The translations under genes were made by a program, and so were the position numbers. A stretch of 64,000 nt of DNA, taken from Candidatus Omnitrophota bacterium (GTDB taxonomy: Bacteria; Omnitrophota; Gorgyraeia; Gygaellales; Profunditerraquicolaceae). The notes beneath the pieces were generated by a model. That model was not told where the DNA came from, made no database searches, and saw only the letters and a program-made list of their open reading frames with translations. The stretch lies in assembly GCA_016208765.1 (NCBI GenBank), contig JACQXK010000038.1:14955-78954 (forward strand), read 5' to 3'. Every line of letters starts with the position of its first letter. The stretch's first letter is position 1. Below are positions 21,001 through 44,916 of the stretch, piece after piece.

Positions 21001-24000
21001 AAATTTATTTGCTATATTGGCATACTGTATTGCCCTAGCTTTGTTATCCACTCCGCCGGCAGCAAGATAACGCGAGACTAACATACAGGCAAGATCTGGG
21101 AATATATTGGTTGGGCCAAATTGCTCTGCTTTAGCAAGGTAAGCACTTCTTGTAACCGGATCAACTGTGCGTTTTGCCATTTCTGTGTAATACATCTGCA
21201 TTACATGAAATCCAGATAAGCTTTTTCCATTAGCCGCGTTAAACTCAGAGGTAGTCAAATGCAATAATTTTCCATCTTTATATACCACAATTCTCACAGT
21301 ACCCTTGTTACCCGGAAGCCCGTCGTACGCTTCAGGCCTCGTGATTAATTCTCGCACATCAACAATTCTACCCTTACTATCTACTGTAGTTTCTCTATGA
21401 GTTAAATCCACTGGTATCAATTTACCGTCTTTATTTCTAAACAATCCCGCCACATGCGGCTCTTCCAGGCCATCTATAATCCCCGAGGTAACCCTGCCTT
21501 TAAGCCCGGTTAACTCAGCCAATTGATAAAAAAGAGTAGTTGCAGCAACACAATTGACTTTTCCAGTACTTGGATCTTTGAGCTCTTTTGTTAAAGCAGT
21601 GTTAAGCAAAATAAATGCTTTTATAAAAGCGACCTTGTCTTCTTCTGTTTTCTTTAAACCTCTTAGAACACCATCAAGATCTTGCCAGCTTGCTTTAGCG
21701 CCATTCGTATCCAACCATTTCAACGTCAACATAACTAATCTATCAGCGCCTTCTTCTTTAGGGATCGGCCTCCCTCTATTTGCCTTTATAAAATTCCTTA
21801 GCCACTGATCAAGATTCTGTTCCTTTCCTAAAGCACCTAAAGCAGCTAACGGATCAAAAGCCCCCTGCTCAAATTCAGGCATGACTAATTGGCCGTCTCT
21901 AACTTTAAAAACTGCTCCACCTTGGCTAATCGCTCCACTTGATATTTGACCATTGGAATCAAAGGAAACTTTACTAGAACCATCAAAAACTAAATCATTA
22001 CTTCCAACTACCTTGCCATCTTTATCAAGAATTGCCTGATATTTCAAATTACCCTTAAAGCCATTACTAACAATTTCATAATTTCTTAAGTCTTGAGATA
22101 TTGATCCGCTAAAATTATAATTAAGACGAGTTAAGAAATTAGAGGAGGCTCCAGAGACCTTGCCATCAACACCTAAACTTAAAGTATTCAACCCCCTGTT
22201 TGCTGCAACAGGCTTTTCTACTTTGTCTTCACCCACACCAGTTTCCTGCTGACCACCAGTTGTTTGAGCATAAAGAGCCTGTTTTCCATTAGCTAAGGTC
22301 ACGCTTACCTGCTTAGTGCCATCTCCTTCAACTCCAGTAACCGCTCTCCATTTACCAGGTTCAGTCATGAATCTGGCTGATGTATCTATTCCTTTAATAT
22401 TACCTGCTGCATCCCAACTTACTCTCTTGGCAAATTCACCTAAAGCTCTTTTCTCATAAACATCAGTAAATAATGCTGTGTATTTCTTACCATCTAATGG
22501 CTGCCAGTAACCTGCATGTCCGCCTTTTATCTGCCCCTTTGCATCAAAAGATACTTGTTCTCCTTTTGTTCCAGTAAAGGTTAGACCGCCGTCGGCAGCA
22601 GCATAAGAAACAGCATCTTTATCTCTAAATTGTCTAACAAGATTTTTATCTCCTTTATACCCTTGATTAACTACTGTATAATTCCTTAAATCTTGGCTGA
22701 TAGAACCACCAAAGTTATAGCTTAATCCTGCGATATAGTTTGAAGATACACCGGATAGATTACCATCAACACCTAAATGCATTGTCTGCGCATGGCGGGC
22801 TGTAGCAGTAGCAGAACTCTCTTTATCTTGAGGAGAAGCGTTGGTTTCCTGGCCCTGAGATCTTTCGCCAAACCAGGCCTGTTTTCCATTAGCTAAGGTC
22901 ACGCTTACCTGCTTAGTGCCATCTCCTTCAACTCCAGTAACCGCTCTCCATTTACCAGGTTCAGTCATGAATCTGGCTGATGTATCTATTCCTTTAATCT
23001 TACCATCTAATGGCTGCCAGTAACCGCCAAGCTTGGTTTCAAGGGTACCATCTGCATTAAAAACAGCTTTATCTCCTGCCCTCACAAAAGCTAAGCCACC
23101 TTTTGCCAAAGAATCATTATTTCTGCTCAGCTGAACTGTCAAAGATGCATCCCCAGAAAAAGTTGAATGCAAAGTTGAATTTCTGAAATCTCCAGACAAA
23201 TTCATAGAGGCAGAATTAAGCTGAGACACAGAAATGTCTGCTATCTGCACACCAGAAGATCGAAGAACGCCAGAACGTTTGGATAATGTTAGCTCCCTAT
23301 GGCTATAACTTACCTTATTATTATCATTACCTGATTCGTCTTTCCTGAGTTCCGGCTGAGGTGTCTGTGCCAAAACCAATTCATTATCTCCGCCAAATTG
23401 CAAATATGGTTTCCCTGCGGCATTAACTCCAGCCACCAAATCCTGCACCGAACCACCAGGCATAGTTAAACTTCTTACTTTAAAATCAAGCCATTTCTTA
23501 CCACCATCCTCTACCCAGAAACTTACACCTTTAAGTGTTACATGCCTTAATGCCACATTATTTCTATCAGTCAAATCCACATAATAATTTCCCGACGCAT
23601 TAATTCCTCTCCACCCTGACTGGAATCCTCTATCTTTAACAAATCCATTTTCATTTAACGTAAATGTCTGCCCCTTTAAAGAACCGCCGTCTTTACGCGC
23701 GGCGGCAATAATTGTTCCTGTCCTACCTTGTTCTCCGGAAACAAACTCTCTAATATCACTTCCAATTGCATGCCTCGTATTCTCAAACATCGGCGAGAAG
23801 TTGATGTTGGTGCCGAGGTTAGCAGAATTAACTTCAAAGATTGCTGCACGCTGCAAGCCGCCAGAAGCGCCCTTTGAATGATATCTTTCTGTATCGCTCT
23901 TTGGATTAATTTCTTTGGTGGACCAAGATGTAATAGGTAAAGTTTTAATGTCGGCTTGCTTATTCTGCGCGCTGTCTTTTTCATCAAATTTAATTTCTTC

Positions 24001-26769
24001 AGGAATAACCATAGCTCCATAGCGCACTTCTTTAAAACGAAGATAATCTTTGCCCTGCTCGGTAACTAAATCTCCGACTTCAACTTCTTTCTTAACACCT
24101 GTCTGCCCATATTTATAAAAAGTAACGGTAGCCTTCTGGTTCTGCTTGGCAACACCGTTTCTTTTCCACTCACTACCTTGATAAGAATACGGAGTTCCAA
24201 CAGCAAGCTCGGTTAACCTCTGAGTACCGTCATTTGCCGAGACCAAATCCGCAAATACCATTGCACTTGCAGAACAACCGGCAGCAGGAGTTACTTTATC
24301 TTTACCAACGATAACTGCAGGATTCGCGCCTTTAACTGTATACTCAGCGCCATTCCAATTAAATTTTTCTCCTAAAATACGCGAATTAGAAAAATACGGA
24401 TTTAAATTTGCACCTTGGCCGGTAAGGCCCAAAATAATATTCCCAGTTGCCCGCATAGTGTAGCGGTCAAGAGTATGATTATTAAAAACAGACTGCACGC
24501 CATAAGCCGTGCTTGATTCGCTTCCTGTAGCAGGCTTAGGAGTTATCGTCGGCAGTGTTCCGGCGTTAATTCCCACTGCATCCACATAGCCATTTTTATC
24601 AGCGTAATAACCAATAACTCTTCCAACAGTATCCCAATCTTTTTTGTCGGCGACTCCGGAATAAGCAACTCCAGCGCCGCTTAGCGCTTTATCTAAAGCT
24701 ACCTTATTCGGCAAGCCAAACTCATTATGTCCAATATCCCATTTTGCACCAGATAACGGCGAATAAAAAGACTGCCAATAAGTTCTGTCGGCAATAGTCT
24801 GCGCGCCTTGGCCATTAAAACGCAAATCCGTCCGGCCCCCGCTATTTTCCATATTTAAACCCATCACCTGCCATGGCAAAGTGCCTCCGTCCCTAATCGG
24901 CTCAGGAAGAAAGTTTACCACCCTTTTATATTCCGGCACGGAATTTCCTTCGGGCGAATAAAATATAATCTCAGGTAAAATTTCTACTCTTTGTCCTGGC
25001 TTAAAACCAATTTGATTGAATCCCGGATTCCAACCAGCACGATTACAATAAAGAGTAAAGCCCGTGTCTCTACCATATTCATCAAGTACTCCCGAAACTT
25101 TAACCAACCCACTCTCCACAGAAAATCCATCATATTCTGAAAGCCTTACACGCGTCGGCGCAGTTACAGGCACATCACGCGGAGCGCTATCTCTATCTAA
25201 CGCATTTACTCCAGACGGATTCATTACCGCATTAGCCATAGTCCACAATGGAACAATTACCGACATCTTCCCATCTCTACCCTTATCAAAAGACTGCTCA
25301 TTTAAACTCACCCTAAAATCCAGTTCACTTCTCTGCTTGCTGATCCATACGTAACCAGTATCCTTGGCAGACCTGCTGCGGAAAGCGCTCTCAGCATGCG
25401 CCACTTGCCCATTAGCCTTTGTTTCAAAACCTTCAAATTTACCTTCCATAGGAGTGGCAAAAAACTGTCCAGTCTGCCCTTTTGCCGCCGGAACAATAGT
25501 CTTATTATTAAAACGCGCTTCCACTAATCTACTGTTGCTGTCAAAACGCTCCTGAATAGCCACAGGCTTTGCAGCAGCGGTGGTATCGCTAATAAATCCG
25601 TAAGTCGCCCTCCACTCAGCGGTCTTTGCCGGATTTGTAGAAGCCTGCGCAAAACCATAGGTGCTGCGCACGGTGTTTGCCGGCCTCTGATTAGGATCAT
25701 AAAAAGTAACGCTCATAGACATTGGCGAGCTGACTTGGCGGGTAATATTGACATTTGCATTGTTAGACCTGGCATCGTAGGCAACAAAACCTGAATTATA
25801 ATTATTTGTCGCCGGACTGCTATAACCTTGATAAGAATTGCTGAATATCTCATCTCTCTCACGCAGCCAATCTCCGGCCCCTCTTATTTCCTTAGCCTCT
25901 TTTTCAGATAAAATTATATCCGTGCCTTGCGGCTGGGCAATTAAAGCATAGCCGCTAAATTTTTCTGCGAATTTTTCGGTCGGCAGAAATTCTTCTTTAT
26001 GCTCGTCACTATAATAGATCTTATCCGGGGTAATCCGGGTTACTAAAACGAAATGGTCTTTTTTAAAATGCGCAATGAATGGCGCTGCATTTGCTGCATT
26101 AGCCGAATTGGTTGAACTAAAATCTAACTTAACCGGATAAAGCTTGTCCCCAAAAAATTCTGCTGATTTTGAAAGGGCAAATAAAGAATTCTTAATTTCA
26201 GTTGGATTTCCTTCAGGCTTAACAATGTCATTTAAAATATCAAAGGTTAAAGCCATAACCGCCACATCCTGCTCCTGAGCGCTTATTCCTTTGTAAACTA
26301 AATAATCAAATAATGCCTTTGCGCCGCAAGGCTTGCCAATTAACCAATTGTAAATTTCTTCAATGCGGCCCTTAGATAATTTTAATGGCTTGGCTAATTC
26401 AATACTCTGTGTGGGAGAAATCTTAATGCTTGTAACCGGCTTACCTGAAAGGTCAATAAGGACATTTTTAACTGCTGTGGGGACATTCAAATCTTGAGGA
26501 TTCCTGACAATTGAGGCAGGGCCCATATTAACTGAAGGAGCATAAGGTTTGTTCCAGAGTACACGCCAATCATATTCAATGGCGTGGGCAACCTGCTCCG
26601 GTAGAAAAACCGCTACCAGGATAAAAGCAACAACTCTGATCCAGCCTTTGAAATTTGAATGAAATGGTGTTTGTTCGGTTTGGATTGTAGGATTTGTAGA
26701 TTGTTCAGATGAGATTACAGTTTGTGGGACAGGCCTGCGCAATACTATATAAAAAATAATTGAGAGCAT
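1..26769 (-). CDS. Giant multidomain membrane-anchored/secreted protein A, partial (>8,900 codons in window; 3' end beyond window position 1)
   Basis: I translated minus frame 0 by hand at 1-60, 3900-3960, 6361-6480, 9400-9780, 12750-12780, 15018-15060, 17281-17340, 25920-26400 and 26581-26769. All are open and in the same frame. The ORF track shows no stop-delimited minus-strand ORF in this frame, consistent with an ORF running off the window edge. ATG at 26769 is preceded by AAGGGGAGG (SD) 4 nt upstream. N-terminus MLSIIFYIVLRRP...GWIRVVAFILVAVFLPEQVAHA is a signal anchor. Plus-strand ORFs here are antisense shadows. Confidence 0.8.
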   Translation of the reverse strand, partial: MLSIIFYIVLRRPVPQTVISSEQSTNPTIQTEQTPFHSNFKGWIRVVAFILVAVFLPEQVAHAIEYDWRVLWNKPYAPSVNMGPASIVRNPQDLNVPTAVKNVLIDLSGKPVTSIKISPTQSIELAKPLKLSKGRIEEIYNWLIGKPCGAKALFDYLVYKGISAQEQDVAVMALTFDILNDIVKPEGNPTEIKNSLFALSKSAEFFGDKLYPVKLDFSSTNSANAANAAPFIAHFKKDHFVLVTRITPDKIYYSDEHKEEFLPTEKFAEKFSGYALIAQPQGTDIILSEKEAKEIRGAGDWLRERDEIFSNSYQGYSSPATNNYNSGFVAYDARSNNANVNITRQVSSPMSMSVTFYDPNQRPANTVRSTYGFAQASTNPAKTAEWRATYGFISDTTAAAKPVAIQERFDSNSRLVEARFNNKTIVPAAKGQTGQFFATPMEGKFEGFETKANGQVAHAESAFRSRSAKDTGYVWISKQRSELDFRVSLNEQSFDKGRDGKMSVIVPLWTMANAVMNPSGVNALDRDSAPRDVPVTAPTRVRLSEYDGFSVESGLVKVSGVLDEYGRDTGFTLYCNRAGWNPGFNQIGFKPGQRVEILPEIIFYSPEGNSVPEYKRVVNFLPEPIRDGGTLPWQVMGLNMENSGGRTDLRFNGQGAQTIADRTYWQSFYSPLSGAKWDIGHNEFGLPNKVALDKALSGAGVAYSGVADKKDWDTVGRVIGYYADKNGYVDAVGINAGTLPTITPKPATGSESSTAYGVQSVFNNHTLDRYTMRATGNIILGLTGQGANLNPYFSNSRILGEKFNWNGAEYTVKGANPAVIVGKDKVTPAAGCSASAMVFADLVSANDGTQRLTELAVGTPYSYQGSEWKRNGVAKQNQKATVTFYKYGQTGVKKEVEVGDLVTEQGKDYLRFKEVRYGAMVIPEEIKFDEKDSAQNKQADIKTLPITSWSTKEINPKSDTERYHSKGASGGLQRAAIFEVNSANLGTNINFSPMFENTRHAIGSDIREFVSGEQGRTGTIIAAARKDGGSLKGQTFTLNENGFVKDRGFQSGWRGINASGNYYVDLTDRNNVALRHVTLKGVSFWVEDGGKKWLDFKVRSLTMPGGSVQDLVAGVNAAGKPYLQFGGDNELVLAQTPQPELRKDESGNDNNKVSYSHRELTLSKRSGVLRSSGVQIADISVSQLNSASMNLSGDFRNSTLHSTFSGDASLTVQLSRNNDSLAKGGLAFVRAGDKAVFNADGTLETKLGGYWQPLDGKIKGIDTSARFMTEPGKWRAVTGVEGDGTKQVSVTLANGKQAWFGERSQGQETNASPQDKESSATATARHAQTMHLGVDGNLSGVSSNYIAGLSYNFGGSISQDLRNYTVVNQGYKGDKNLVRQFRDKDAVSYAAADGGLTFTGTKGEQVSFDAKGQIKGGHAGYWQPLDGKKYTALFTDVYEKRALGEFAKRVSWDAAGNIKGIDTSARFMTEPGKWRAVTGVEGDGTKQVSVTLANGKQALYAQTTGGQQETGVGEDKVEKPVAANRGLNTLSLGVDGKVSGASSNFLTRLNYNFSGSISQDLRNYEIVSNGFKGNLKYQAILDKDGKVVGSNDLVFDGSSKVSFDSNGQISSGAISQGGAVFKVRDGQLVMPEFEQGAFDPLAALGALGKEQNLDQWLRNFIKANRGRPIPKEEGADRLVMLTLKWLDTNGAKASWQDLDGVLRGLKKTEEDKVAFIKAFILLNTALTKELKDPSTGKVNCVAATTLFYQLAELTGLKGRVTSGIIDGLEEPHVAGLFRNKDGKLIPVDLTHRETTVDSKGRIVDVRELITRPEAYDGLPGNKGTVRIVVYKDGKLLHLTTSEFNAANGKSLSGFHVMQMYYTEMAKRTVDPVTRSAYLAKAEQFGPTNIFPDLACMLVSRYLAAGGVDNKARAIQYANIANKFNIQLGAGLTSIMNIVVKAQAAGDLDKVIVTQDGNQLSISYQEGKTRKKTEVGAPLLTDYMPYGLEVLPGTGLRQVKTPQGEMAYMFNGARVYVKGETEIDGVRYLCLSGAQYSNKLFYVSLANASGTQLSEDVAFASGEKGRWVRSLNRGVFEQYIQIGDTRYTLQPWLQQLGFAYDCYRSADGKMKWLERKTRKEANSGTLLASTEALSVQTRGKVLREMLSNNPRAAENMVALFNTTDSWRGQMAFWRSDSERSRKLLVINPQTGIMEYISFSDIDVSSGEVRVFNNYALRTSYAQAQRVFMGAFAERALKHGYIPIAVVDDAVTTRSAAIYGGAAAAYVAGTVLSATGVGAPTGVSLIMIAGAAAYSIAGAEILKYGLTGETLTWSERVTAGVLGAAPAALGKAAQFARASASVVSGAGVGAGAMDFTEAAVNVVQASRLARVAGVATQIIAASGRTLESGATFAYASYALGNAGSIASSGRPLTFGEGAVSLASGYIPSAVGQLRGVGALGKGMSYLIGAQKASRAAHIGYSLGWAGAGGLINSAVNGWSGRNFLEGAAVGFVARNIAYLSYVSSARLFGLGLNEAEKSATFQWIWKTPLRGNLIYSAGWSAAGAGIYPFFTKEGHTWSNALKGAGLGLVARWGGVALLKPSFATGNIFLKVSEKTNEISKLRLFGNGAVRLLTHPLTVSTALAKYDLAGVKYDLDANGRVVAESVKGGNLDFLGPVLRGVLVNSGRNFIGVFSGQRSYSKTNAVIDQLKMQERKQVTDYLRDVQQNSSFGWMRAAVGAYLYSFADTFAQAASGSYSISAAAHPLDTLHGLISFADHAKQMLIDQTGEVPTATGAEWGMFLGGLIGATKGYKTMATRISESEYFNIPKGLLKGQTYKLIGTDTGLRITNYKFTQRLGAVFVKTHSDAANLVVWNTVFSTFVGNAMSGGQFSLEDVSRQVTAMAYSMDTVAKGAFGLSAVFNSLGLVSGELGKTRAGKFWNSLGEKEAKYNSRRGWAIGTSVGMIVGGYGLYRWGMSNSPKDKPSESWNYVADAGLVLAGIGGLLMMKSLSGVLSSRAFVARKERLPGTTESALERSLLGRTEAKYFGTVANGLEGWKALGHSVAYYAPYISLGVASGIYANYKLTGELFGDGWKTDVIAGAAFGVGLRNVFPILRLAGQAGLLAGNLASGAALFYGTKKMVDGKLEEWAWKLDPQKRKPDFAEATRPYLFEEQKVFMIEEDEYGQKKLDTTKEKVLVERDGKKLEVYPYKYKEAGKLNHWRYALFLGANMLGATKIGLIARETYIKGPLEPQIGFGRGAAKGIRENVINGGEKMWDWVFSSRRKGGVPPGEGHASSAVGGVNAGATTFWKSVSSPQFVIPVATALTGLATYGFSGTKYGENIGKAMMILPALYFVSKVGKFKLSDIHLFGVEHPIISSTLMIGAGYGLEHWGAVEGTFGLKGATIGENGADLGLIVGRIGTGMKWLGTVNLVASVASRIPGLRDSFLDKTSRQVAGLSLAGTKGIAWDFALRGTMINLFTVIAPLQGVVESLSAFTKTYISPAAYGDWEKSLLNFTYGAFWITPEESKQGKGPASRDKYAVLLGAFDKAGSFESKLRVAGRIAERAYFAGLFGSYAEGDNIQDNKKKIGDIKVDSFDQAPKTLSGFFKKVDRTNLIFSATLAGLQPFAESAFGAIKWRNFGYKFQAIGKGVEETLGAGMLLKSSPRESSLGAGKIIGQRLYSMVVTGTVEETVTEQFIQAALNFLPFGAFLSPSKASQLSEILQEILSPNGMAGRVNVFSRGQAIDYLKKKIYNAENAKNVLNKRLTEGSNARGSENRLRNGRPIALTTEMVQTRQAALNDMITQYRAALNNVRGLALFTSTPEEVSAAMRPSLQRKAEILIARGQAAVDERWGVGMWQAAMRGKRGRVNLMPANSIRNEETNAVTPAQVDKETGDFRLDAAMNFNYKVSSGGRLSVTTNVVGEYNVGGGAHELHHSVIDYVQHDTRRIIDNNTRLQYEGFLNQFQNRLGLDNEEFQRVDLGITEWGLNEALVQYYSMVDLLHFLDQDKNLHLAKFCPGSYNIQDLIQRTINQGGNSLLSLSERMLEMENTGEAMDYIIDFVQCTNGNKIKFVTPTAQTNGQQPEEDDDTSSPIIMNLKRKPVYGLPPEVESAKDKKIIASSSVLAALSDSKENASSDVPLSATDKVGIPEAQKVVSAAIEASRGRSPPEQAITVPVVTPVVIPSVTPASAQRATFSSVGRMKSYLAKLFIPLALAVIIFGGVKLSPVTGTLANNVSGATPKAVSRVVQVSRPSNFILNDENQQIERVVKASPAVVKATQFTKQKDNAPLVPLIRSLQEVKDSSLINLLKRAAFFVQPPENNQAVDKKIIVSSAVLTALTGKKEVVLSAPIATPVVTSIVAAYVSPRNIINQSSSAINSNDLRKGLRWTAAGLSLTSVGVLGSMFAIDHAPSIEILSYVQGGLLTTVAGLGTAVRTIDLVSGNNSSKGAWLSQLAITLGTPLDVFFGGAVSQVGNAMQIAGASYSVVKEKGLARWANVIGIGFDAFDIVQGHTLERPAKSGIDSGGVISETVDEMISRDAVGKIKFNPVKFLIPVVVAALISGGVKFGLVTGALADNVKSASPKAVSEVVKVGNPSNLVVRGENNHIVRTIKVDHAVVKAVPVAVDIQKKASASSAIVSSPTAQATRFTLNKRTQSVTYPGRLGLVHQDVVGYLQSAGKAPEQHLTIVDLGIGHSGAPTVFEFARVLSDAGYRNVDLIGVDNTVKHLVSARDRLEREEVPVGIRMDFGINDNFLLFPDVRSFAGRGIRALRDGVDLILTANVLGHYWEPEQQKTAIWAMTQALKPEGALVVAGGNKFEVKLINKFLYSYGIDYYSKAGELLSARRFEKINPLYSSRASELEYKQHFSFRDPAVRRTYFAGEFSSKPVASLAWQTLAQQSRQPVVVDVSASSVLVENEEVKAIASLAQAMVAAKRQGNAAASPVVVENGQRFIELAPEHRTEIAKFAAIKEQLVEARANIGKAMAEGASVDKIRELAGVLDSVSNEVMKWINEAIAKKDADPVLAIIGLSFKTSGDNYGREGGRQFSAFDSYSAAFGLQSYVELFNGSSENEKKEVLEMIFESASDLEGRMSLDLSLFNNNNPKLPLRIVAFTDGYLAREVIDVDAVLDQASSPVQSPAENQLPANLPVAPARVPVPTSIGAVVGGLGTFAEMLGSSPALPLVIKPATEGLVVSSSAIMSTVAGTQLFGQAGGVNVATGISPMSGRGNRQAGRKLGALVGSSAVGAIVGARGAAESRSNETGLPVAANVGAVARTVGKSRGSSSAIIGLRREDDKLPLIGESASSSIHTRNQILVEKYGARGPPADYPLNQTVSSAIPVNYGAVVRIGSSSVSLSSIYQLLKYYLKEIISAFISNEPHFTPSVAGMVDEAIVVYAGRQKASLQGLTSFGACVTTKTTASSGLSSIFVADFSLSGILWTLTCVSFSAAAFYGFIRKNMRFAALSSSIVIFNFAFNFANLNWFFHNWFYNFLDVSVYMGFALGLVELSRYIKENNSELENGLAAKPITQISVIGANIAAAVFFSLLSAQEILTKYESTRNFIHAFYWKNLTYDPYDILAYAAGTLLLVLYNRWTAEPKESMGKRDVGLQGLLRNQKPVRRNRSRSTSSPITNLTKPYSIPSVAGTIVKAIVVYAGRQKASLQGLTSFGACVTTKSASNAVTKILNYSVAVEPQSNLTTYFKLTGGAKCVDLTIQKLILTTWWNSLKTQLSLPRVETTVICGFSLLTTARVMSIAVMAGQIPGKYSQIMTVIWSLNDSSLPAAARSRSTRSTQKGRSNRVAGHVSPVTSHLSPVSGKAASSALNNDLGAVARTEGSSSAVIDLSDTLFKESDGVVELFNVFVDEFEEVVKLARETGAKITKKFLNELFERMFDARFINATKKQRNNLRNQAIEAVTAGHASSALTNNVGAVVVASSSVDEVTRELPVSEESKEMIKVFLSEFTVTLDKFKDALSKYKKNNKKGLTALEQLIIGFSKSIEGGRKRTKTDAQDIFGMLCQTITKISEYDLNAAMFVINGALYRLKKVSEPEKRKEAFAWIESEIGKMEFVLASINAGANFVKAHRDNNELLIDIKGTFLLNLETLRGRNLRKAEEVVREFMKDYIMVITRDQNVDPEQTTFRERGILFIEMFTKRFADNEAFIIDLMKKAVTASSAVGAVVAINTTQASSAVVEMGWSELFRAFFKTLNHFMGNSIGPIVGNIKLMQDPAYASYLASPDVIKSEIIDGCQSMLKFIEEVLSMEQPSVAEIASNLDPDPVLFVESIKNITGAPASVKLTDNTWDEIKKEILLPRLNFLKNQVKYILNFVDTIDGDNEARNTVGTAGETMRYAVAEFENKYRDMVEIPGLVLTSIFSAHMLLKEYSGSYGISGERDIKIVEDSVLFKILLDIGYERSYIHAVLAKRGLKVFFAHERDFGKKESNGDHPIGAVVYRYDENNNNIVVFCFGVINSRRNEYLSPILLLKFLSLILVDWKQEKEIAKYHGTDFNPTVSIVVDPRIGDGAFFKAFNFSKNGNVFSKPFDAIVKSSSPVGALMVTKTGTSSPVGAVVGAIASQEAAKSSSALFNNFGAGKYLSDVANKGLIRAGPVGSLVTICSSSSVRNLVVKTVKIASVATIIILFGLLVNIKGFLPLLPVVLSAASFGLLYASFTARKNIRLNPQTQITPAAALKKAMPAALYVAAGTLLIIGGLKITPLIISAGLLAKLLPSVVIMLGISMLLTASFLTKHGVEYSGVKFLKLAFGMLLTRLIALRLAHQAVHTQKTLGERHSFRDLFSIRHFTLKTRAAYIGLSLAVVLTSGIASVKLIIIAAVLGYTMPYLWNVLRNFFFDRALYNAERTGLIFKHHDNQLEAAQTEFINNLEKKLAAEYANLSWPAKAVLHIAFFFVRLNVAFPVLSATTMFFFGRLQLILLSSLLGHIFAPVILGDAVINSLPAVYGIKFLEPYLSALHLSYHTGDIFGTLAIVFGLKVINLGHIRNRIIEFWLGRSINVMSYYQALNSDKEQVREKAKADLEYIISRGAMGNSLFEKVVMNGLGKKVARISSRQWLYLKADIVALAVILAVVTPIVLMLKFPVLLPLGLLGLGLYVAQSIRKKAFFADPYKNLWVSLSGEFFSSMLYMWTIGAEINAVIASGGFLAEHPVLKHFGGTELDIIGRSLEGENGAISWGSHALNSVNQFVGADLTEFAYSLVSGNKEPGIFATAYNFYPLYQNGQILKNKDGHILPGGLNLDDFHALYVGRKPLSKELDRNETAKLLESFKGRFNFDRIFSHSRRANIIRVIDRVYRVRINSADDLRRLLRSANLDEIISGFGMVGKDSKNLLNIRHAFSVRAVKAQEGISERARRLMLMSVEYKFKALAQADDVQKERFMILARIVDLDLQDEVLRENNSAKEKSEDNQLSRRIALLELEINNEKGAVKLEGLRKQKHALELFLAQRKVYRLERATTEEFMAELSAQGFGGVSGQEAEMFRETALQQAYDELAELKDKKPAVPVTEPANSIDIRDQIRQQEEQGTKAQDRQIVAAPKAPAQVVINKGVKVPGQVPVETTMSRAPPAKQANNTFGQKAKAVVLASALFLNSLGATEAFAAAVPAAVPAPAPVARRPDPVAVPRQAPAAPADIIYTIKSGDTVSKIAIRYGIKWQDLYDYNKGVIGANPNRIFPERQIKIPVSARTAAPAQTAQPQPADQAVKSGPTTGAKASPEPAVTPKPKPAPYKPLDYSGIRDLGSVPQALAALGRRIPRELDLTKKADDLLIPLQTISTDLEALKARVHLLKSPKSWDKKYNGFWDYIKAFRAFEAAKEQVLEQIRGLETTIARKASYIRVEKGEFELKKKTAKYEKYLKISRYDAQRKAFLELMPVSFADDPAEFGKTYLYDFAVLIDALTFAGENKKAAELLRLFTRFFGDGKNGFYNAYILSDLRHIENKSAGPLAHMIIALCNYERTSGDGTYRHVAENIARFMQKNLLTSANGMTMFRFTNNKEDYLDLYNVVSTEHQISSYAAFNQLYALTGDVDYKLVRNSLQDYLTAAYITQEGYFKVGYRIDTNTWDTDYANDLNSWAILAGIAGPAQEQMLDFVEGQVIKVDYRKQGEKIKVEGLPFGRARLDQKQVVTFEWTSFAALAAAKTGRVKLSRRLLDSQNRAAVNGMLEYATEPDVSTYFGWSTSRGRALVSSLWNLLAQSGANIFDPHCSGAKINAGNLDSMLKNFSFSEETYRLKQAEYAVFDMVRSLYGAQSWVKEIQERLAMTEKEREDLINLAPIIKIGPGGLFNSLFSFNFGSFPLFGDDCNLGIGLQLGGKYGAIPSLLNNVYGLSKNGISIIGTLAAADAIIDLYSAPKMEKLEERGGIMYLDGREFNAGILSAAWPKALLNMRYDPKTGRVIKGSEEETVTPVKVDFPWEKVTNVISRLLHLKSPFERKDYKAIVFLGTQQLLAYRQAFFNKNADDVYFAIRQGKYQYIVKHNLSSREYEIISETLMFEEETRKFLQDVGWYMHDGEAIVLPSILRLNYARNYVNSIQEGKFGAEVNPVTGEVYEVRREQDIPPVVYDAKGLPLDPYAGNVKMPSLNLALIRWAMEMGETGKQKFAVLFDGDNVDIRTGDQGLQVKVAGKEFKFKSGRREIVFSAGTRYVEIDGEKVLVIAEKEINVPIAIVYSTSPRIPTQFIYDKKELVNIEIVGEPEEIRFDNGLKIELTTGTALRWYYDEKASPLGAGIIEFAKDQDYLSNEAVVENDFSRLATQPFGVKEGEMLPVLEGDKPFEDAARRDPNAKADHLTRLTNMYWDEVFKLMQMRRELRGFSDIYQAIAADAVTEDRLRFYSDLVDGLEFWRRQIEIEMGGKRTVSLADLDQNLDKTMVDLQKEIDDRNSWRPALLAQIATYQSEVNQYKALRTQAEQAHNQFLVNYYTGIIDQYETILIPDVYKQLSQLEVENNVKM
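3820..3960 (-). other. LysM domain in giant protein A, flanked by Pro/Ala-rich linkers
   Basis: Verified translation APAAPADIIYTIKSGDTVSKIAIRYGIKWQDLYDYNKGVIGANPNRIFPERQIKIP. Canonical LysM pattern YxVkxGDTlxxIAxxYgv...L...N.l....i.pGq.l.iP. Confidence 0.75.
5400..6480 (-). other. Polytopic membrane segment (8 or more predicted hydrophobic helices) embedded in giant protein A
   Basis: Translation of 6361-6480 verified (AAYIGLSLAVVLTSGIASVKLIIIAAVL). The adjacent stretch continues with several about 20-aa hydrophobic runs (approximate read). Confidence 0.4.
9403..9451. repeat. Heptanucleotide array (GGAGACA GGAGACA GGTGACT GGTGACT GGTGACA CGTGACC GGCGACA) inside gene A
   Basis: Seven imperfect 7-nt units. 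Verified to encode ...VAGHVSPVTSHLSPVSGK in frame. Confidence 0.85.
9826..9930. repeat. Internal direct repeat copy 1 in gene A (80-nt perfect identity with 10596-10675)
   Basis: ttagttgtcacgcaggcgccgaaggaggtcagtccttggagggaggccttctggcggcctgcgtaaacaacaatagcct is identical at both sites. It contains an imperfect internal palindrome (gcaggcgccgaagg...ccttctggcggcctgc). In frame; encodes VVYAGRQKASLQGLTSFGACVTTK. Confidence 0.9.
10596..10700. repeat. Internal direct repeat copy 2 in gene A
   Basis: See copy 1 at 9826-9930; 770 nt apart. Confidence 0.9.
12400..12900 (-). other. Class I SAM-dependent methyltransferase-like motif set within giant protein A
   Basis: Verified translation PEQHLTIVDLGIGHSGAPT (motif I hh(D/E)hGxGxG), followed by DLIGVD (post-I acidic), VDLILTANVLGHY (motif II) and KPEGALVVAG (motif III). 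Confidence 0.45.
15031..15045 (-). other. HExxH zinc-metallopeptidase-type motif (GGGAHELHHSVIDY) in giant protein A
   Basis: Verified codon by codon. The motif alone is not proof of a peptidase. Confidence 0.35.
22277..22398. repeat. 122-nt perfect direct repeat copy 1 in gene A (tandem ~200-aa domain repeats)
   Basis: gcctgttttccattagctaaggtcacgcttacctgcttagtgccatctcc...cctttaat is identical at 22877-22998. The surrounding about 600-nt units (21900-23100) are diverged copies of the same unit; copy 2 lacks an about 85-nt segment. Confidence 0.9.
22877..22998. repeat. 122-nt perfect direct repeat copy 2 in gene A
   Basis: See 22277-22398. Confidence 0.9.
25920..26340 (-). other. Peptidase C39-like (papain-fold Cys/His) domain within giant protein A
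   Basis: Hand-translated: IGKPCGAKALFDYLVYKGISAQEQDVAVMALTFDIL...NAAPFIAHFKKDHFVLVTRITPDKIYYSDEHKEEFLPTEKFAEKFSGYALIA. The Cys, His and Asp/Glu spacing and the HFVL...D..E..F..W/F.G motif match the C39 bacteriocin-processing peptidase pattern. Confidence 0.5.
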
Positions 26770-26885
26770 GCGCCTCCCCTTACCCCAAATTTCTTTAATC
26801 ATCGCGTTTATCTTCGCGCTCGTCATAATTTAATTAAAGAGAATTAAAATCTGTTTGTGAAACTGTTTAATAAGCAATTAAATAA

Positions 26886-27070
26886 AAAACCGGATTGTCA
26901 AAACCTTGTCTCGGTTCGGCAACCCGGCCATCCTTTGATAATACTCAATTTATCTTTTAGGACCCGTGGCTTTGCGCCCCCCGATTACTCGTCCCGTTCA
27001 ATAATCTTTCTAACGGGATCCCGCTTTTTTTGCGGGAGGGTTTGCCCTTCTCGTTCCAACCTCTAATTGC
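26886..27070 (-). promoter_or_regulatory. Conserved 5' leader L1 of giant gene A (structured RNA candidate ending in hairpin + U-tract)
   Basis: Homologous to 35088-35296 and partly to 45303-45489. Shared blocks: GCGGGAGGGTTT, CCCGTGGCTTTG(C/T)GCCCC, CGG(C/T)AACCCGGC, a hairpin, then AAAAATAAAA(A)CCG (U-tract on the sense strand). Confidence 0.5.
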
Positions 27071-27076
27071 ATATTA

Positions 27077-27105
27077 AGTATATATGATGCTTACAAGTGT
27101 GTCAA
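27077..27105 (-). promoter_or_regulatory. Sigma70-like promoter of giant gene A (TTGACA, 17 nt spacer, TATACT)
   Basis: Sense strand reads TTGACAcacttgtaagcatcataTATACT. An AT-rich UP-like region lies upstream. Confidence 0.5.
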
Positions 27106-27545: not shown

Positions 27546-30500
27546 TTAAAATTCTTCACGGGTTTCTCCTGAAGTTGAGAAAGTAACAGACTTATTTGTT
27601 TCAGTTGAGCTGCTTAAATCAGGATCATTGGATGGCTTTGCTTTAATATAATCCCACCTATAACCAACAGTGTCATCTCCCATTAAAGGCTTAACAAAAG
27701 CCTGCGGCATACCGTTAGCATTCCATGCCGGAGGCAGCATAATTGAAGCACGGCCTTCATAGGCAGCTCCAAGAGTAAGATCCTCAGGATTATCCTGCAC
27801 CAAAGTAATACCATTGCCCATATCCACCAGTTGGATCTTAAGTAATCCATCTCGTGCCTCTTCCAAGCTGATAATAGATTGTGCGGGATCCTGCCAGCGG
27901 CCCAATTCTTCACTAAGTTTCTTTATTTCTTCCTGCACTTCCTTTAATTTCTTTTCAGCTTCTTTTTTCTGCTGGCTATCATCACTCATCGCTTCCAAAC
28001 CTTTATTAATATTTTCTTCTTGTAGAACTAACTCTTCAACACTGCTTTTCTTATCCCTCAGATAATTTATGTCTTGAGTATAAATATTATATGCTGTGCG
28101 AATATTTGCCTCAATAGAATCTCTATTGTACGCTCCGTTACGGGGCAGGGTAAATGCCGGCGCCAACTGCAGATTATTTTCTGCCCGATAACCGGAAGTA
28201 ACGCCCCATTGCAATAACGGCGCATTTTCTTCGGTATTAAAACGGGTATACTTATAAACACCCGACTGCCAAACCACATTTGCCGGAGCGCTAAGCTGCC
28301 CTATCTGTTTCACATATTCAGTCCTCTCAAATAATTCTCCCGAGGTATGCTTATCTGCCTTGGCTCTTTCAGCATTGAACCTGTCAAACACAACGCGCTT
28401 TGTAAGCGGCAGATCTTTCTGCTCTTGGGCATCATCACCTTGGATAGCCTCAAACTGTTTAAAGTCAAATACAACACTCTGCGCAATTTGCCATATCTGG
28501 TCGGTTAAGCTGCTTGGAATTGCTGAATCAAATTGAGGTTTATTGCCACCGGCGTAAGCCGCATTCAATGCCTCTTCAAACATACGCTTCCCCTTGTCTC
28601 TTAAAAATGCTGCTTCTCTGCCTGTGTTTAAATACATATAAGGCTGCAGTGCCGGGCCTGAGCGGGTTTCAGAAAGGCGCCATGAGTAAGACGGATTTCC
28701 ATAAGGGCTGTGCCCTTGGCCGATAGAATAGAAGTTATAATTGTAGTCTGTATTTGCCCCGACGGAAACTGGAGCGTAGCCAGATGGCTGTATTTCAACT
28801 GTAGGAACAACTTCCGGCTTCTTAGGCTCCGGATCCCTCATCATTACCTCAAGGCTGCGCGGCAACCATATCACGCTGGCAGCAAGCATGTTAGCAACAT
28901 GGTGGCGAGGAGCTTTGTCTGGATCATAATCCTGGATAACCGCAGTTGTTGCAGCATCTCTTTTCATATTATTGCTCGGATAATCTGAATTGGATTGCAT
29001 ATTCCAATCTTCTAAGACAGTTGCCCAGCCAACAAATTTAACGGTAAATCTTTCTTTGTCTTTAGCAGACATTTCATTCCAAGCATCATGATTATTGGCA
29101 ATATACCACAAAAGCATTGTATTATGCGAAGTTGGCTTGTCGCTCTTAAACCCGCGTCCAACCCTTCCTTGTTTTTTATACCAACGCCTCACAATGCCAT
29201 CAAGTTCTTTCACCAAATCCGGATTATCAGCAAACAATTTCTCTGCATCCCGGTAAGAAACTTTCACCACTTCCACATCTTTGTTTTCAACTGCAGCTAT
29301 AAGCCTTTTTGTGGCCACAGCTTTAGCGGCCCTTTGCACCGGATCATCCCTGCTAAACAGCTGTTCCGTCGCTGTAGGCAGTTTTGGAAAACGAATAACT
29401 ACCCGAGCCTCAACAGGAACAGGGCTCTGCCCTTGAGGAGCAGCTGCTTGATCTTGCTTGCCAACTACGCTTTGCTCTTGCACATACTCCGGAGGAGTAA
29501 TCGCGGTGTAATCCGTTGTCCTGGTCAATGCAGAACCAAACGGGCCGTAATAATATTCGGTTGTCTTGGGCAATTGCACCAAATTCCAATTACCATTGGC
29601 AAAATCCTGGCCATCCTCACTAACAAAATCCTGCCCGAAATATTCTGTGCTTCTTGCCCTGCCCCATAAATCAACTCTGGTGCGCGATAAAAGGCTGGTA
29701 ACCGGCGAGAAAAATACCGGCCGCGCAGAAGAAAATTTGCGGATAATTTCTTTTTTATCTTCAAGTGACAAAGCCAATAATTTTTCTTTTTCGGCATTAA
29801 ATTCCTGCACTGCTTTTTCATCCTGAGCATCAGGCAATTGCATACGTTTTACAAATTTATCAAACTGCTCTTGCATAAACTGATCCTGAGTAACAAGGTC
29901 ACTCTTTTGAGCCTTAAGCATATCTTGTGTCAACGCCTGCATTACCGGCTGGGCGATAACAGAACGCCCATAGGTCAACTGATCCAGAGGCAATCCGCCG
30001 GCAACTGACAAAGAATAAGTGCTGTTTACTACTCCGTCGCCAATATTAGGTAAAGATAAATATTTACCCAAAATACCTCTTTCCTGCGGCTTAAGCATTG
30101 TTGAACTGCTGGCGCTAAAATGCCGCATAAATAATGCTTCATTAGTATTTAGGGATGCGTCCATACCTGCGGCCTCATCTCTGCGCTGGTAATGATAAAT
30201 ACCGCCGATTTGCCCATGGCCAAGGCTTGAATCATACACGGAATATTCCATTTGCCTTGCCTCTGCCATCTGCCTTGCCACAGGCAGAGCTTGCTGCATC
30301 CAATTATCTTCACCTTCTCCGCCTTTCTTGCTAAAGAAATAAACCGACTTATCTCTAAGCGCCCAACCTTGAGTAATTTCTGCAGTAGTAACAGGAGCAG
30401 AATCAGGTAACTTAGCGCTATACACAGGTGTTAACCCTTGTGCCGCAACCACCCACTGGAATATTTCCTGGCGCGGAATTGATAAATCTTGAAGTTGTCT

Positions 30501-33500
30501 ATTTATTTCTGGTAAAGGCGCTTTTATTGCATCCATTTCATCTCTCAATCCATTAATGCGTGTCTCCTGGATACTAACAAAATCCTTAACCTTACCTTCA
30601 AAAACACTGATTTCTTCTGCACCAAGCGCATCACGATTCATAGATTGTCCAGCAAGCTTATTAATATTTTCTACTTGCTCTTCTTCCCCAGCAAAAACAC
30701 CAAACTGAGCATTTGTGGCAACCACAAGCGAAATTGTATTAACATCCGGATTTAAACCTTGCTCTTTTGCCTTCTGCAAATCTTGATATGCTGCGTAAAT
30801 CGGATCTGCTTCCAGCTCTTTTTTCTTTTTCTCTTTTTTATTCACTTGCTCTGCAATTTCAGTTTTCTTTACTTCTAAGCCAACTATTTGCTCAGCTGTA
30901 TCAGGCTTATATCTCTTCGCAGTATCAATAAATCTTTCTGCCTGCTCTCTTAAGGCCTTTCTTCTTTGCGTTTCCTCTTTTACTAACTCGCTTGTAGGCT
31001 TAAAACTTGCGTAGGTGCGGGAAGAGCGAGGCAATATTGGATTTGTAAAAACAGCAGAAACAGATGAAGCCAGCCTTGAATTTGCCTGCTGGCTCAATGA
31101 TTCAAGCATTAATGCCCTATTAGCTTGTAACGGGCTGTAACCCTTTGCCCGCATTTTCATATATTCAATAAAACGATCCTGCTCATTAAATCTTGCCTGC
31201 AAACCATTCATTCCGTTAATCGGCGTCCTTAAATTAACCGGGAACAATGTGGCATTAACCGTTGACAGGAATAAATTATCCCCTATATTTTCCAAGGTAG
31301 CAGGAATAAACCTGCCCAACACATCACGCATGCTGAAATTAATTCTTCCTTTGCTGATTGGATCCTCGCCCAGAGAAGGCATTCTCCTGGTTTCTCCGGA
31401 GTAATCAAACCCAGCTATATTTAATCCATAAACAGTCCTGGTAATTTCGCGTGTGCGCACGCGGAAATCCTCCGGAGCAAGCTCTACTTCTTTTCTTTCT
31501 TTGGAAGATAAAACAATTATACCGGTTTCTTTCTTACCAACAACAACACCTTTCTCATTTACTACATCCATTATCTTACGGGTATCTTGTGCTACCGAAT
31601 ACACCGTAGTAGTATCTGCATCCAATTCAAATTCTCCGGTGGATTCACTTCTTGCTGTCCCGCCTTGCGCTCTTATCTGGCTGACTGAAGCATAATGCAC
31701 ATCGCCAGTGGCAGACTTTAAAGAAATAAGCGGATCAGCGGTATTTTCTGTCCAAAATTTAGTCCCGTTAATCTCATATCCGGGGAGAGTAATCATTTTT
31801 AATGGAGAACGCTGAGACGGGCCGGCAAAAATAAATTCACCTTCTCCTAAAATATTATACACATCAACTATCTCAGTTTTCTGAACCGATTTGTTAAATT
31901 CTTCTCCGCTCATCTCTAAAATATTGCCATCGGTAGAGATAAAAGTGTGTTCCGGAGAAGCATTGCCTTCTTGGTCAGTAGCTCTAATATAAGTCCGTCC
32001 ATCTCCGGCAAACCGATAGTATTCTACGCTCCGTCTTGGACCCGACTGGGCAATCGCAGCCCACTGCTCTGAAGAAACTTCTTTATTTTGTCCATCACCT
32101 AATGAATGCAAAATAACACCAGCTGGCTTAGCCTGCTGGCTAAATTTCTCCGGCGTCATAAAAGTCCTCTGGCCACCTGGAGTTGATGCTCCCAAAAGCA
32201 CTCCAGTAACTGTACTCACGCCCTTTAATGCCTGTCCACTGCCATATTGGACAACATTTGCGGATAAATCTTCCAACGACACTGAGATCTTCTTTTTAGT
32301 CGTTCCTTCGCTTTCCAATTCAACACTATTGCTATCCTGGCTATAGCCAACAATATGATAATATTGTATCTCACCTGAACCAGAACTAAGGCCTACTCGC
32401 ATAGGAGCATTATTTGATGCTGAAGTTTCTGATGATTTCTGCTGCAAACTTACCGCCAACTCTCTGCCGAAGTCATTTTGAAATTCATCCATTGTCTTAA
32501 GTTTTTCACTGCCGGCAACTATGATCGGCTGTTGATCACTTTTTTTCTCGTCTTTGTTTTCTTCCGGTTTATTCGCCACAAAATCAACAACCATTATATT
32601 TCCAGTAGCTATTACTTGGCTGATATTACCATCTCTGACATAAACCTGAATATCTGTTTTCTTTGCTCCTTGCTTTTCTTTTACCTCATCCAATGTTTCA
32701 GAAGAAAAATCTATATACTGGCCATCGGGGGCATGAGCCCTTGTTATATCTTTTGCCGGTGCGCGCAAGACCAAAGCATCAACCACTGAACCAGCCACTA
32801 CACCACTGGCAAGATGTAATAATTCCTGCAATGCCTGCGGTTGGCGAATTTCATTCACCCGGCAATACTGCCCCCAGGCAATTTGCAAGCCGGCATCCAC
32901 AGCATTATCAATTAGCGACTTTGCTATATATTTAGAAAGAGATAAACTTCCTCTTGTTCGCCAATAATTATCCTGGACTTTATTACCTGTTTTATCATCT
33001 GTCCAAGTCGTTCCGGAATACCATGTGTTTAAAACATCTATATTAGAAAACACACCGCTAGAAAAACCGGCAATTGCTCCAGCACCTACGCGCTTAACCA
33101 AATTATCAAAAATCTTATCATCATCGTCGCCGTAATGAGTCTTATACCCCATTGCTGATAAGACTGCAAGCTTAACCCCCAAATTAACAAAGGGTGCCAG
33201 CCCCATATTCTGCACCGCCTTAAAAGACTGATTCAATATGCCAAAATCACTCATTGTGTTTCCTTGCACATCAGTCATCAATCCACCGGTTGCATTTAAC
33301 AAAGCAGCTGTGTTAACATGCGCTTGTGTTAATAAATTCAACGTACTCAGTTGTGCCTGAGCAAGCTCTCTTCCTGAAACCTGGAGCAAAACATTTTCCT
33401 TTTCACCTGTTGGAATAATAAGAATTACTTTTTCGGCAGATTGTAAAATACCAGCGAGCGCTTTATTTTGCGCAACATCAGAAAGGGCGATACTCCCAGC

Positions 33501-35087: not shown

Positions 35088-35296
35088 AGCAAAAATAAAA
35101 CCGAGCTGCCTTTATTCAAACTCGGCAACCCGGCTACCCAAAAAATGATTCCAAATAAACTCGGTAAACTACATTTCTCCGAGGGGCCCGTGGCTTTGTG
35201 CCCCCTGATTACTCATCCCGCTCAATAATCTTTTTAACGGGATCCCGCTTTGCGGGAGGGTTTACTCTTATCGAACTGACCTTTATTATTTACTAC
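35088..35296 (-). promoter_or_regulatory. Conserved 5' leader L2 of giant gene B (paralog of L1) ending in hairpin CCGAG...CTCGG + UUUUAUUUUU, 45 nt before the ATG
   Basis: About 85-90% identical to L1 over the core cccgtggctttgtgccccctgattactcatcccgctcaataatctttttaacgggatcccgctttgcgggagggttt. Confidence 0.5.
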
Positions 35297-35302: not shown

Positions 35303-35332
35303 AGTATAGCATTCATATATATATATTTCAAG
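35303..35332 (-). promoter_or_regulatory. Sigma70-like promoter of giant gene B (TTGAAA, 17 nt spacer, TATACT)
   Basis: Sense strand reads TTGAAAtatatatatatgaatgcTATACT. Confidence 0.5.
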
Positions 35333-44298: not shown

Positions 44299-44326
44299 CT
44301 TACCAATCACCTCCCTTTAAATAAAG

Positions 44327-44704: not shown

Positions 44705-44727
44705 TTTTGCTCACCTCCTCTTAAATT

Positions 44728-44916
44728 TTATTCTTTAAATATACCTGTTGTTAAATCATTGGTCGTGTTTTGAATGGCATCTCCCGCCTTATCATATGCG
44801 CCCTTTATTTTCGTTTTAACTCCTCCGAACAACGCCACAACAATTACAGTGATCACCGCGCCCAATAACAGAGTGTATTCCAAGATGCTCTGGCCTTTCT
44901 TAAAATCACGTCTCAT
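44728..44916 (-). CDS. flp: Flp-family pilin (flp3, about 62 aa)
   Basis: ATG at 44916 preceded by GAAGGAGGTGA. MRRDFKKGQSILEYTLLLGAVITVIVVALF. Confidence 0.8.
   Translation of the reverse strand: MRRDFKKGQSILEYTLLLGAVITVIVVALFGGVKTKIKGAYDKAGDAIQNTTNDLTTGIFKE

Follow-up and report, generated by a model that had tools for sequence, protein, structure and literature searches.

Omnitrophota are uncultured, mostly ultra-small bacteria that are thought to live as predators or episymbionts and that carry some of the largest known genes (10.1101/2023.11.21.568195; PMC10066038). Which signal might govern the expression of such genes is the question raised by the 64,000-nucleotide stretch of a Candidatus Omnitrophota genome analysed here (hereafter, the window), where three modules on the minus strand, named L1, L2 and L3, precede giant ORF A, giant ORF B and an array of Flp-like pilin genes, respectively. 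In each module, a near-consensus sigma-70-type promoter is followed by a structured leader and by a hairpin with a U-tract. Across the region, all genes are oriented on the minus strand. The promoters, shared blocks and hairpin with U-tract quoted in a first-pass annotation of this DNA were all located on that strand, and the riboswitch-type layout that it proposed, namely a promoter and a structured leader with a terminator within the 5′ UTR, stands as well.

The L1 promoter (TTGACA-17-TATACT, 27077..27105, minus strand) matches 11/12 consensus positions and keeps its place in relatives, the L2 promoter (TTGAAA-17-TATACT, 35303..35331, minus strand) matches 10/12, and the L3 promoter (TTGACA-17-TATATT, 45496..45524, minus strand) matches 11/12 and bears a TG extension. 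The two 11/12 sites are the best minus-strand promoter matches between 26.5 and 46 kb, while the L2 site is one among several 10/12 matches in the same interval. As promoter-like sites are not enriched there (41 found vs 39.7 expected from shuffles), the weight of the three promoters comes from their position and from the same arrangement in relatives. In addition, each -35 box has a conserved motif 20 nt upstream: GAAAACACTTTC at L1 (27126..27137), GAAAGCGTTTTC at L2 (35352..35363), kept in relatives, and the perfect palindrome GAAAGCGCTTTC at L3 (45545..45556), which abuts the stop codon of the upstream 604-aa gene, all on the minus strand. Zero-mismatch matches to GAAARCRYTTTC number just three in the window, one per promoter, and the motif recurs in relatives at the identical spacing. 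We consider this common element a lead rather than a finding, that is, a candidate transcription-factor site.

Giant ORF A (1..26826, minus strand) stays open for >8,942 codons, runs off the left edge of the window and encodes a C39 peptidase-like domain at residues 214-300. Its start had been placed at the ATG at 26826; this codon instead opens a conserved small upstream ORF, which is in frame with the giant ORF here and in a separate frame in relatives. Giant gene B (27546..35045, minus strand) encodes 2,499 aa from the ATG at 35045, with no Pfam domain. The third module is followed by five Flp / class-III-signal-peptide-like pilin genes (43861..45291, minus strand; 45291-45112, 45119-44976, 44916-44728, 44704-44327 and 44310-43861), the array being preceded by the Shine-Dalgarno sequence AAGGAG (45303-45298, minus strand). 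All five translations show (G/A)QS..E(Y/F) and then a hydrophobic helix, and their Pfam Class_IIIsignal match is weak and below threshold. The pilins sit within a Tad-like locus encoding RcpC/CpaB, a secretin with a TonB_C tail, a TadZ-TadA fusion, a TadG-like protein and two T2SSF proteins; the Pfam matches (RcpC, Secretin, a CbiA+T2SSE fusion, T2SSF twice, TadE/G-like) are those of a Tad/Flp (type IVc) pilus, and no prepilin peptidase was identified.

Family membership and relatives of the leaders

The first-pass annotation had recognised no known RNA family in the leaders. A scan of the window against Rfam with cmscan, which that annotation had itself suggested, however identifies all three as c-di-GMP-I (GEMM-I, RF01051), each at or above the gathering score of 35 bits: L1 at 27056..26915 with 46.6 bits, L3 at 45475..45349 with 40.2 bits and L2 at 35276..35121 with 35.6 bits, the last one barely above the gathering score. 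With the whole window set against 4,227 Rfam families, the E-values fall between 6e-6 and 3e-3. The sole other Rfam match in the window is a tRNA. A permissive Rfam scan returned no fourth GEMM copy in the window. A further giant ORF, C (63998..54219), is still open where the window ends on the right, and its leader therefore falls outside.

GEMM RNAs are described as two adjacent hairpins with an AAA linker, the first of them built from 2 bp, an internal loop of 3 nt and a further stem that usually ends in a GNRA loop (PMC1950547). Both the alignment and the folds show two hairpins joined by an AAA linker, as well as the GC/GC base of the first hairpin, in all three leaders. L3 had been thought to keep the 3′ half of the element only; it has in fact a complete aptamer with a simple first hairpin. 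Each of the three aptamers occupies a 5′ UTR position, with a promoter upstream and a gene downstream. Judged by their sequence, the three leaders are class I c-di-GMP riboswitches (GEMM-I) and new members of an established class.

L1 and L2 were also considered as members of the c-di-GMP-I-GGC family (RF03167), on which they score slightly above their RF01051 scores in a permissive scan. This membership was rejected, their 48.1 and 36.1 bits, respectively, lying below the threshold of 59 and the consensus G47 being absent. Relatives upstream of giant-A homologues (L124-L131) reach 59.8-66 bits on the same model (gathering score 59), yet they carry A47; RF03167 has a consensus G47 (GCGAAG), whereas A47 (GCAAAG) is found in every sequence examined here. 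Consequently, these RNAs are filed as canonical c-di-GMP-I and the RF03167 label is regarded as a clan-competition artefact. In other words, Rfam clan competition can name canonical A47 sequences a 'GGC' variant, which is a pitfall for annotation.

Relatives were collected along three routes. A scan of reference genomes with the TadC protein gave one locus, in a Candidatus Omnitrophota groundwater MAG (82% amino-acid identity), where an orthologous riboswitch (L003; 42.2 bits on RF01051) precedes an orthologous pilin gene, its leader being 94% identical to L3. A DNA pattern made from two conserved aptamer blocks retrieved 120 loci from metagenomes and was far more productive than the TadC scan. 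Among these metagenomic loci, L3-like elements precede pilin arrays in L017, L102 and L119, so that pilin homologues lie downstream of GEMM-I in four loci with L003 included; L1-like elements precede giant-A homologues in L052, L116 and L055; and an L2 orthologue (L042), 86% identical at the nucleotide level, precedes a giant-B orthologue only 49% identical at the protein level. The third sample was blind to the riboswitch, as it was composed of eight homologues of giant A residues 41-340, selected by the length of their contigs, with their upstream DNA (L124-L131). Homologues of these residues are mostly annotated as Candidatus Omnitrophota C39-domain proteins. In seven of the eight, a GEMM-clan match that exceeds a gathering score lies 170-270 nt upstream; the remaining one, whose contig has low coverage, shows a degraded GEMM copy, and the whole module is present in all eight.

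The covariation check that the first-pass annotation had asked for in homologues turned out strongly positive in an alignment of 43 sequences. The pairs of the fold are intact in 97.3% of cells, vs 82.3% in shuffles and 27-47% with slid partners; double-change cells number 115 vs 36.6 expected; and the covariation score is 0.462 vs 0.172, a value reached by 0/500 shuffles. The metagenome search pattern fixed much of the second hairpin, leaving six of its ten pairs unable to vary, and these pairs therefore give no information. The signal is supplied by the first hairpin with its 2-bp base and by the distal portion of the second.

The ligand pocket and the first hairpin

The L1 aptamer, together with an extended P1 (UUGG..CG / CG..CCGA), covers 26911..27059, with G20 at 27046 and the C92 equivalent at 26919; the L2 aptamer covers 35119..35277, with A20 at 35266 and a U22-A45 pair; and the L3 aptamer with its extended P1 (CGGC..CG / CG..GCCG) covers 45344..45477, with G20 at 45465, all on the minus strand. 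In Vc2 numbering, the pocket is thus G20/A47/C92 in L1 and L3 and A20/A47/C92 in L2, where A47 is presumably a further residue lining the ligand pocket. In Vc2 itself, the two guanines of c-di-GMP are contacted by G20, which reads one of them, and by C92, which pairs with the second (PMC6140456). The canonical G20/A47/C92 set makes c-di-GMP the expected ligand of L1 and L3, and G20 with A47 is found in all giant-A-type relatives. A20 occurs in 3 of the 43 aligned sequences, and the L2 orthologue L042 shares with L2 both A20 and U22-A45 in place of C-G. Riboswitches of the GEMM-Ib type that bind cGAMP carry A20, several natural ones being bispecific, and the G20A mutant of Vc2 binds both c-di-GMP and cGAMP (PMC6140456). 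From its A20, L2 may accept 3′,3′-cGAMP besides c-di-GMP or in place of it.

The first hairpin of L1, L2 and L042 is expanded according to the scheme CCC-(CCCGC..GCGGG)-A-(UCCCGUU..AACGGGA)-(CGA-GUAA-UCG)-GGG. In the folds, the inserted hairpins lie at 27036-27020 and 27018-26992 in L1, followed by a GUAA-capped tip at 26991-26982, and at 35256-35244 and 35242-35216 in L2, with the tip at 35215-35206 (minus strand). In a MAFFT alignment this tip aligns with the GNRA tip of ordinary relatives. The first hairpin of L3 is simple and ends in the non-GNRA loop UUGGAGG. The GYRA-type tetraloop occurs here without an obvious receptor, which fits a rule given in the original GEMM description (PMC1950547). 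Constrained folding turns the expanded hairpin into a four-way junction, which is supported by two compensatory changes, from CCCGC/GCGGG to CCCGU/ACGGG in L042 and from CGA/UCG in L1 to UGA/UCA in L2 and L042. A search with the N-terminus of giant B returned no homologues at E <= 1e-8, so that the A20 observation rests on two lineages and the junction on three sequences. With three sequences a firm claim would be premature, and both the predicted four-way junction and the putative cGAMP-reading copy are offered as leads, not as findings.

Terminators and the direction of the switch

RNAfold places a stable, G+C-containing hairpin with a U-tract directly after it, that is, an intrinsic terminator, in each of the three leaders; a simple terminator scan leaves them unlisted because of its loop-size and stem rules. 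The L1 terminator (26880..26929, -20.0 kcal/mol) pairs the 5′ arm GGCCGGGUUGCC, made up of the 3′ strand of the second aptamer hairpin and the C92 region, with the 3′ arm GACAAUCCGG and is followed by UUUUUUAUUU. The L2 terminator (35091..35135, -19.4 kcal/mol) has the same design, with the aptamer 3′ strand AGCCGGGUUGCC as its 5′ arm, GGCAGCUCGGUU as its 3′ arm and the U-run UUUUAUUUUU. At L3 the terminator stands alone (GCCGAGGUUUCUUU-loop-AAAGAGACGUCGGU followed by UUUUUUAUUU, 45304..45347, -22.3 kcal/mol), and its basal GCCG doubles as the 3′ strand of the extended P1; all three lie on the minus strand. The sharing of the 5′ arm with the aptamer 3′ strand, seen in L1 and L2, extends to 8/10 metagenomic relatives that were folded and, by eye, to L124-L131. 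The terminator 3′ arm, moreover, covaries with the aptamer strand (GUUGCC/GGCAAC vs GUUACC/GGUAAU, and GGGCUG/UAGUCC).

Because the same strand serves both structures in L1 and L2, aptamer and terminator are mutually exclusive, and a ligand that stabilises the aptamer must lower termination, which is ON logic. In constrained folding the terminator is the minimum-free-energy state and an enforced aptamer removes the hairpin adjacent to the U-tract (-58.6/-45.1, -63.3/-45.9 and -61.3/-48.9 kcal/mol, values that leave out ligand and tertiary contacts). The terminators of L3, L003 and L102 begin 3 nt past the aptamer. The basal GCCG of L3 can nevertheless pair with the upstream CGGC and so extend P1 by 4 bp; in L017, CAGC/GCUG replaces CGGC/GCCG in this proposed helix, a single compensatory change detected by eye. 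With the extended P1 enforced on L3, an AU-rich upper stem alone is left, 5 nt from the U-tract. If the extended P1 does not form, the L3 terminator would be ligand-independent. L3 is probably an ON switch too, with less confidence than L1 and L2. Throughout, we infer the direction of the switch from secondary-structure logic alone.

The following sequence of events can be proposed. Each strong sigma-70-type promoter would give rise to an mRNA whose first ~130-160 nt can fold as a GEMM-I aptamer, in the order P1, first hairpin, AAA linker and second hairpin. When the ligand is absent, the intrinsic terminator would be the more stable fold and transcription would stop at the U-tract, 18-60 nt before the coding region. 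A bound cyclic dinucleotide would lock P1 and the second hairpin and block the terminator, thereby allowing RNA polymerase to read into giant gene A, giant gene B or the pilin operon, so that high c-di-GMP would switch surface and attachment functions on. Ligand binding and the transcription start sites of the modules are features that we infer. A probability of roughly 0.85 can be given to the reading that the modules are GEMM-I-controlled transcription units acting as ON switches for giant A, giant B and the pilin operon. Between the L1-type terminator and the gene start, no further conserved RNA structure was detected (0 compensatory pairs). The L1 hairpin was also considered as the terminator of the upstream gene; this was rejected, as ~440 nt and a conserved promoter separate it from the end of giant B at 27546, and the hairpin shares a strand with the aptamer.

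Could the ligand act in the opposite sense, favouring the terminator so that high c-di-GMP shuts down the pilins or giant genes, at least at L3? OFF-acting GEMM-I riboswitches exist elsewhere, for example upstream of flagellar genes, and the self-contained terminators of L3, L003 and L102 can coexist with both aptamer hairpins in the minimum-free-energy fold. Inspection, however, revealed no pairing of the aptamer with the terminator 5′ arm that would act as an anti-terminator, and the terminators of L1, L2 and most relatives, which use the aptamer 3′ strand, are compatible with ON logic only. The pairing of the basal GCCG with CGGC in the extended P1 of L3, with its L017 counterpart, also speaks against repression, and c-di-GMP normally up-regulates pili and adhesins. 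We consider an OFF function unlikely. It is very improbable, in our judgement, that the short terminated RNA is the main product, that is, an abundant riboswitch-bearing small RNA which would buffer or store the cyclic dinucleotide as proposed for Bdellovibrio merRNA. In favour of this are the very strong promoters, a terminator fold that is thermodynamically the default and the precedent of Bdellovibrio, a predator which expresses its c-di-GMP riboswitch RNA very highly, with no downstream ORF (PMC3627812). Whereas merRNA has no conserved downstream ORF, each element here lies 5′ of a conserved gene family and the pairing of element and gene is kept across many lineages. A small-RNA role and gene regulation are, in any case, not mutually exclusive.

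A different concern is that the similarity of the leaders might be the mere trace of a recent segmental duplication with REP-like repeats, the sensors being no longer functional. L1 and L2, once described as 85-90% identical over about 180 nt, share 90% identity over ~90 nt only (the 5′ half of the aptamer) and 79% across the entire 317/324-nt module; the duplicated block runs ~400 nt further upstream through REP-like repeats, and amounts to ~600 nt when these repeats upstream of the promoters are included. The possibility of duplicated coding starts was rejected, since the N-terminal 1,000 aa of giant A show no similarity to those of giant B, and paralogy is consequently limited to the regulatory module. 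Against a non-functional remnant, the differences between L1 and L2 are compensatory pairs (C22-G45 to U-A, and CGA/UCG to UGA/UCA), L3 has diverged far and retains the fold, the leaders are better conserved than their downstream genes and the module is kept in 8/8 independent relatives. Covariation largely refutes this explanation already, and it can hardly be maintained.

Giant genes, pili and known c-di-GMP riboswitches

The published description of Omnitrophota giant genes reports N-terminal C39 domains and, upstream, a secretion/pilus locus in which homologues of gspD, gspE and gspF occur together with rcpC, a Rotamase_2 isomerase and small class III signal peptide genes, and the layout of the window matches it in both the C39 domain and the upstream locus. 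That description contains neither c-di-GMP nor 'non-coding', and it uses 'regulat' once, in an unrelated sense. Within the literature library that was searched, no paper was found that connects Omnitrophota giant genes with c-di-GMP or riboswitches. The GEMM-I family is already established, as are its link to pili and surface proteins and the use of terminators in ON switches, and the presence of GEMM-I before pili and adhesins will not surprise specialists; the part that appears to be unreported is the Omnitrophota host and the giant-gene regulon. The regulon claimed earlier as undescribed is therefore so in a narrow sense, its sensor class being well known. Similarly, the idea of one regulatory input stands as far as the giant proteins and pilins are under a common type of input, but L2, with its A20, may read cGAMP. 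A canonical RNA sensor in front of giant genes and of the neighbouring pilin operon leads to a testable hypothesis, namely that c-di-GMP triggers the apparatus for attachment or predation, and offers a first concrete, culture-independent handle on the regulation of Omnitrophota giant genes.

A more ambitious picture would combine all of the leads. Here, L1 and L3 would sense c-di-GMP while L2 would be specific for 3′,3′-cGAMP or bispecific, L1 and L2 would represent a new four-way-junction subtype of GEMM-I, and a common transcription-factor site at ~-61 would add a further layer to a circuit, conserved across Omnitrophota, that controls giant genes and pili in attachment or predation. Taken as a whole, this two-dinucleotide model is put forward tentatively and is, in our view, rather doubtful.

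Knowledge of the c-di-GMP-I class goes back to 2007-2008. Its members typically precede pili, adhesin and motility genes (PMC1950547, PMC4933901), the link of GEMM to pilus genes dating from its first description (PMC1950547). The elements described here resemble Vc2 of Vibrio cholerae (RF01051) in the AAA-joined hairpins, in the first-hairpin base with its 2-bp stem and 3-nt loop, in the G20/A47/C92 pocket of L1 and L3 and in the 5′ UTR position before pilus or surface-protein genes. Unlike in Vc2, the 5′ strand of the first hairpin is interrupted in L1 and L2 by two additional hairpins, with a predicted four-way junction; the loop of L3 is UUGGAGG and not a GNRA tetraloop; the second hairpins are long, with 34-61 nt separating the conserved strands; and the host phylum is Omnitrophota, with giant genes as targets. 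For the proposed mechanism, the comparison is with Bc2, which precedes cap (collagen adhesion protein) in Bacillus thuringiensis and is a proven c-di-GMP-I ON switch with an anti-terminator mechanism (PMC4933901). It is likewise a class I c-di-GMP riboswitch with a terminator as expression platform, and it turns on a large surface adhesin that is repressed by default. Bc2 is, however, experimentally tested and present as a single copy in a Gram-positive host, whereas the switches considered here are predicted and form three paralogous modules in one locus.

With the Geobacter GEMM-Ib riboswitches Gs1761 and Gm0970, L2 and L042 have in common an A at the position equivalent to G20 of Vc2, a substitution which enables the pocket to recognise the adenine of cGAMP (PMC6140456, PMC8835794). 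The rest of L2 is closest to its c-di-GMP-type paralogue L1, and its ligand choice is a prediction. Finally, merRNA of Bdellovibrio bacteriovorus is, similarly, a c-di-GMP riboswitch RNA with a strong promoter (PMC3627812); it has no regulated downstream ORF and is a proposed c-di-GMP sponge, whereas the elements of the Omnitrophota locus precede conserved genes.

Upstream elements of the riboswitch promoters

Each of the three riboswitch promoters of the window, driving giant gene A (leader L1), giant gene B (L2) and the pilin array (L3), is accompanied by one copy of the near-palindrome GAAA[AG]C[AG][CT]TTTC on the minus strand (27126-27137, 35352-35363 and 45545-45556, respectively). In all three cases the motif lies exactly 20 nt upstream of the -35 box, with its centre at about -61, and these are the only perfect matches found in the window. 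The same element, with identical spacing, is present at the riboswitch promoters of nine further metagenome loci and precedes the riboswitch promoter in six of the eight loci (L124-L131) that encode homologues of the giant A N-terminus. The near-palindrome is probably a transcription-factor site and, if so, these promoters would be under dual control, by a protein and by the riboswitch.

In addition, a REP/MITE-like intergenic repeat containing the hairpin TCATTCCCGCGAAAGCGGGAATCC occurs four times in the window (27209-27279, 27297-27417, 35389-35509 and 42106-42176). Three of the four copies are located a short distance 5' of the promoters of L1 and L2, and the L1/L2 duplication is therefore about 600 nt long.

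Giant genes, a conserved small ORF and the Tad locus

Giant ORF A (1-26829, minus strand) runs through 8,943 codons without a stop and exits the left edge of the window. In relatives, the C39 peptidase-like N-terminal part is a gene of its own (400-480 aa) followed by the giant gene, which in L125 encodes 14,858 aa, whereas in the window the two are fused into one ORF. A third giant ORF, of at least 3,260 codons (54219-63998, minus strand), is still open where the window ends on the right, which places its start and leader outside.

The interval that separates the L1-type terminator from the giant gene contains a small ORF of about 24-42 aa (26826-26740, minus strand), which is conserved in the metagenome loci L116, L052, L082, L055 and L014 and in L124-L131. 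It is characterized by the invariant block GGGGTAAGGGG(A/G) and terminates in TAT(A/T)AGGTAAA, a few nucleotides 5' of the main ATG, an arrangement that would allow translational coupling. In the window copy the stop codon is gone and the frame is continuous with giant ORF A. Because L014 reads the block in a different frame, its conservation looks to be at the nucleotide level; a search of this region for conserved RNA structure found none.

The Tad locus (minus strand) encodes a 718-aa ATPase that fuses TadZ-like (CbiA/ParA) and TadA (T2SSE) domains (47811-49967) and a secretin with a C-terminal TonB_C domain (49971-51647).

Architecture and ligand-pocket variants of the riboswitches

Several environmental GEMM-I riboswitches (L011:814-979; L079:516-718, minus; L050:1941-2120; L109:2478-2639, minus) bear two to three added hairpins within or beside the first hairpin. 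The junction sequence GGGAUCCCG is common to L011, L079, L1 and L2, but in L011 and L079 the insert lies 3' of the GNRA hairpin, unlike in L1 and L2; the extra-hairpin insert may be a recurrent insertion module. In the metagenomic GEMM-I elements of L020, L073, L108, L012 and L079, a second copy of the 3'-strand block, GAUCGCCGGGYUGCCGA, is nested within the second hairpin; this extra strand may be a built-in competitor, or it may point to aptamers arranged in tandem.

The riboswitches of L124-L131 are assigned by Rfam clan competition to RF03167 (c-di-GMP-I-GGC; 59.8-66 bits), while position 47 is A in all of them, not G, and a wrong label is to be expected from automated annotation.

In pilin-type riboswitches (L3 in the window, at 45458-45441; the L3 orthologue of L003; L017, L119 and L102), the first hairpin is capped not by a GNRA tetraloop but by a purine loop, conserved as UGGAGG (UGGGGGA in L102). 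Their long second hairpin contains pyrimidine-rich stretches, which could pair with the purine loop in a candidate loop-loop contact. The pilin-type riboswitch of L119 (3273-3417, minus strand; AAACGCAAGG) has C at position 20, which corresponds to neither the c-di-GMP state (G20) nor the cGAMP state (A20).
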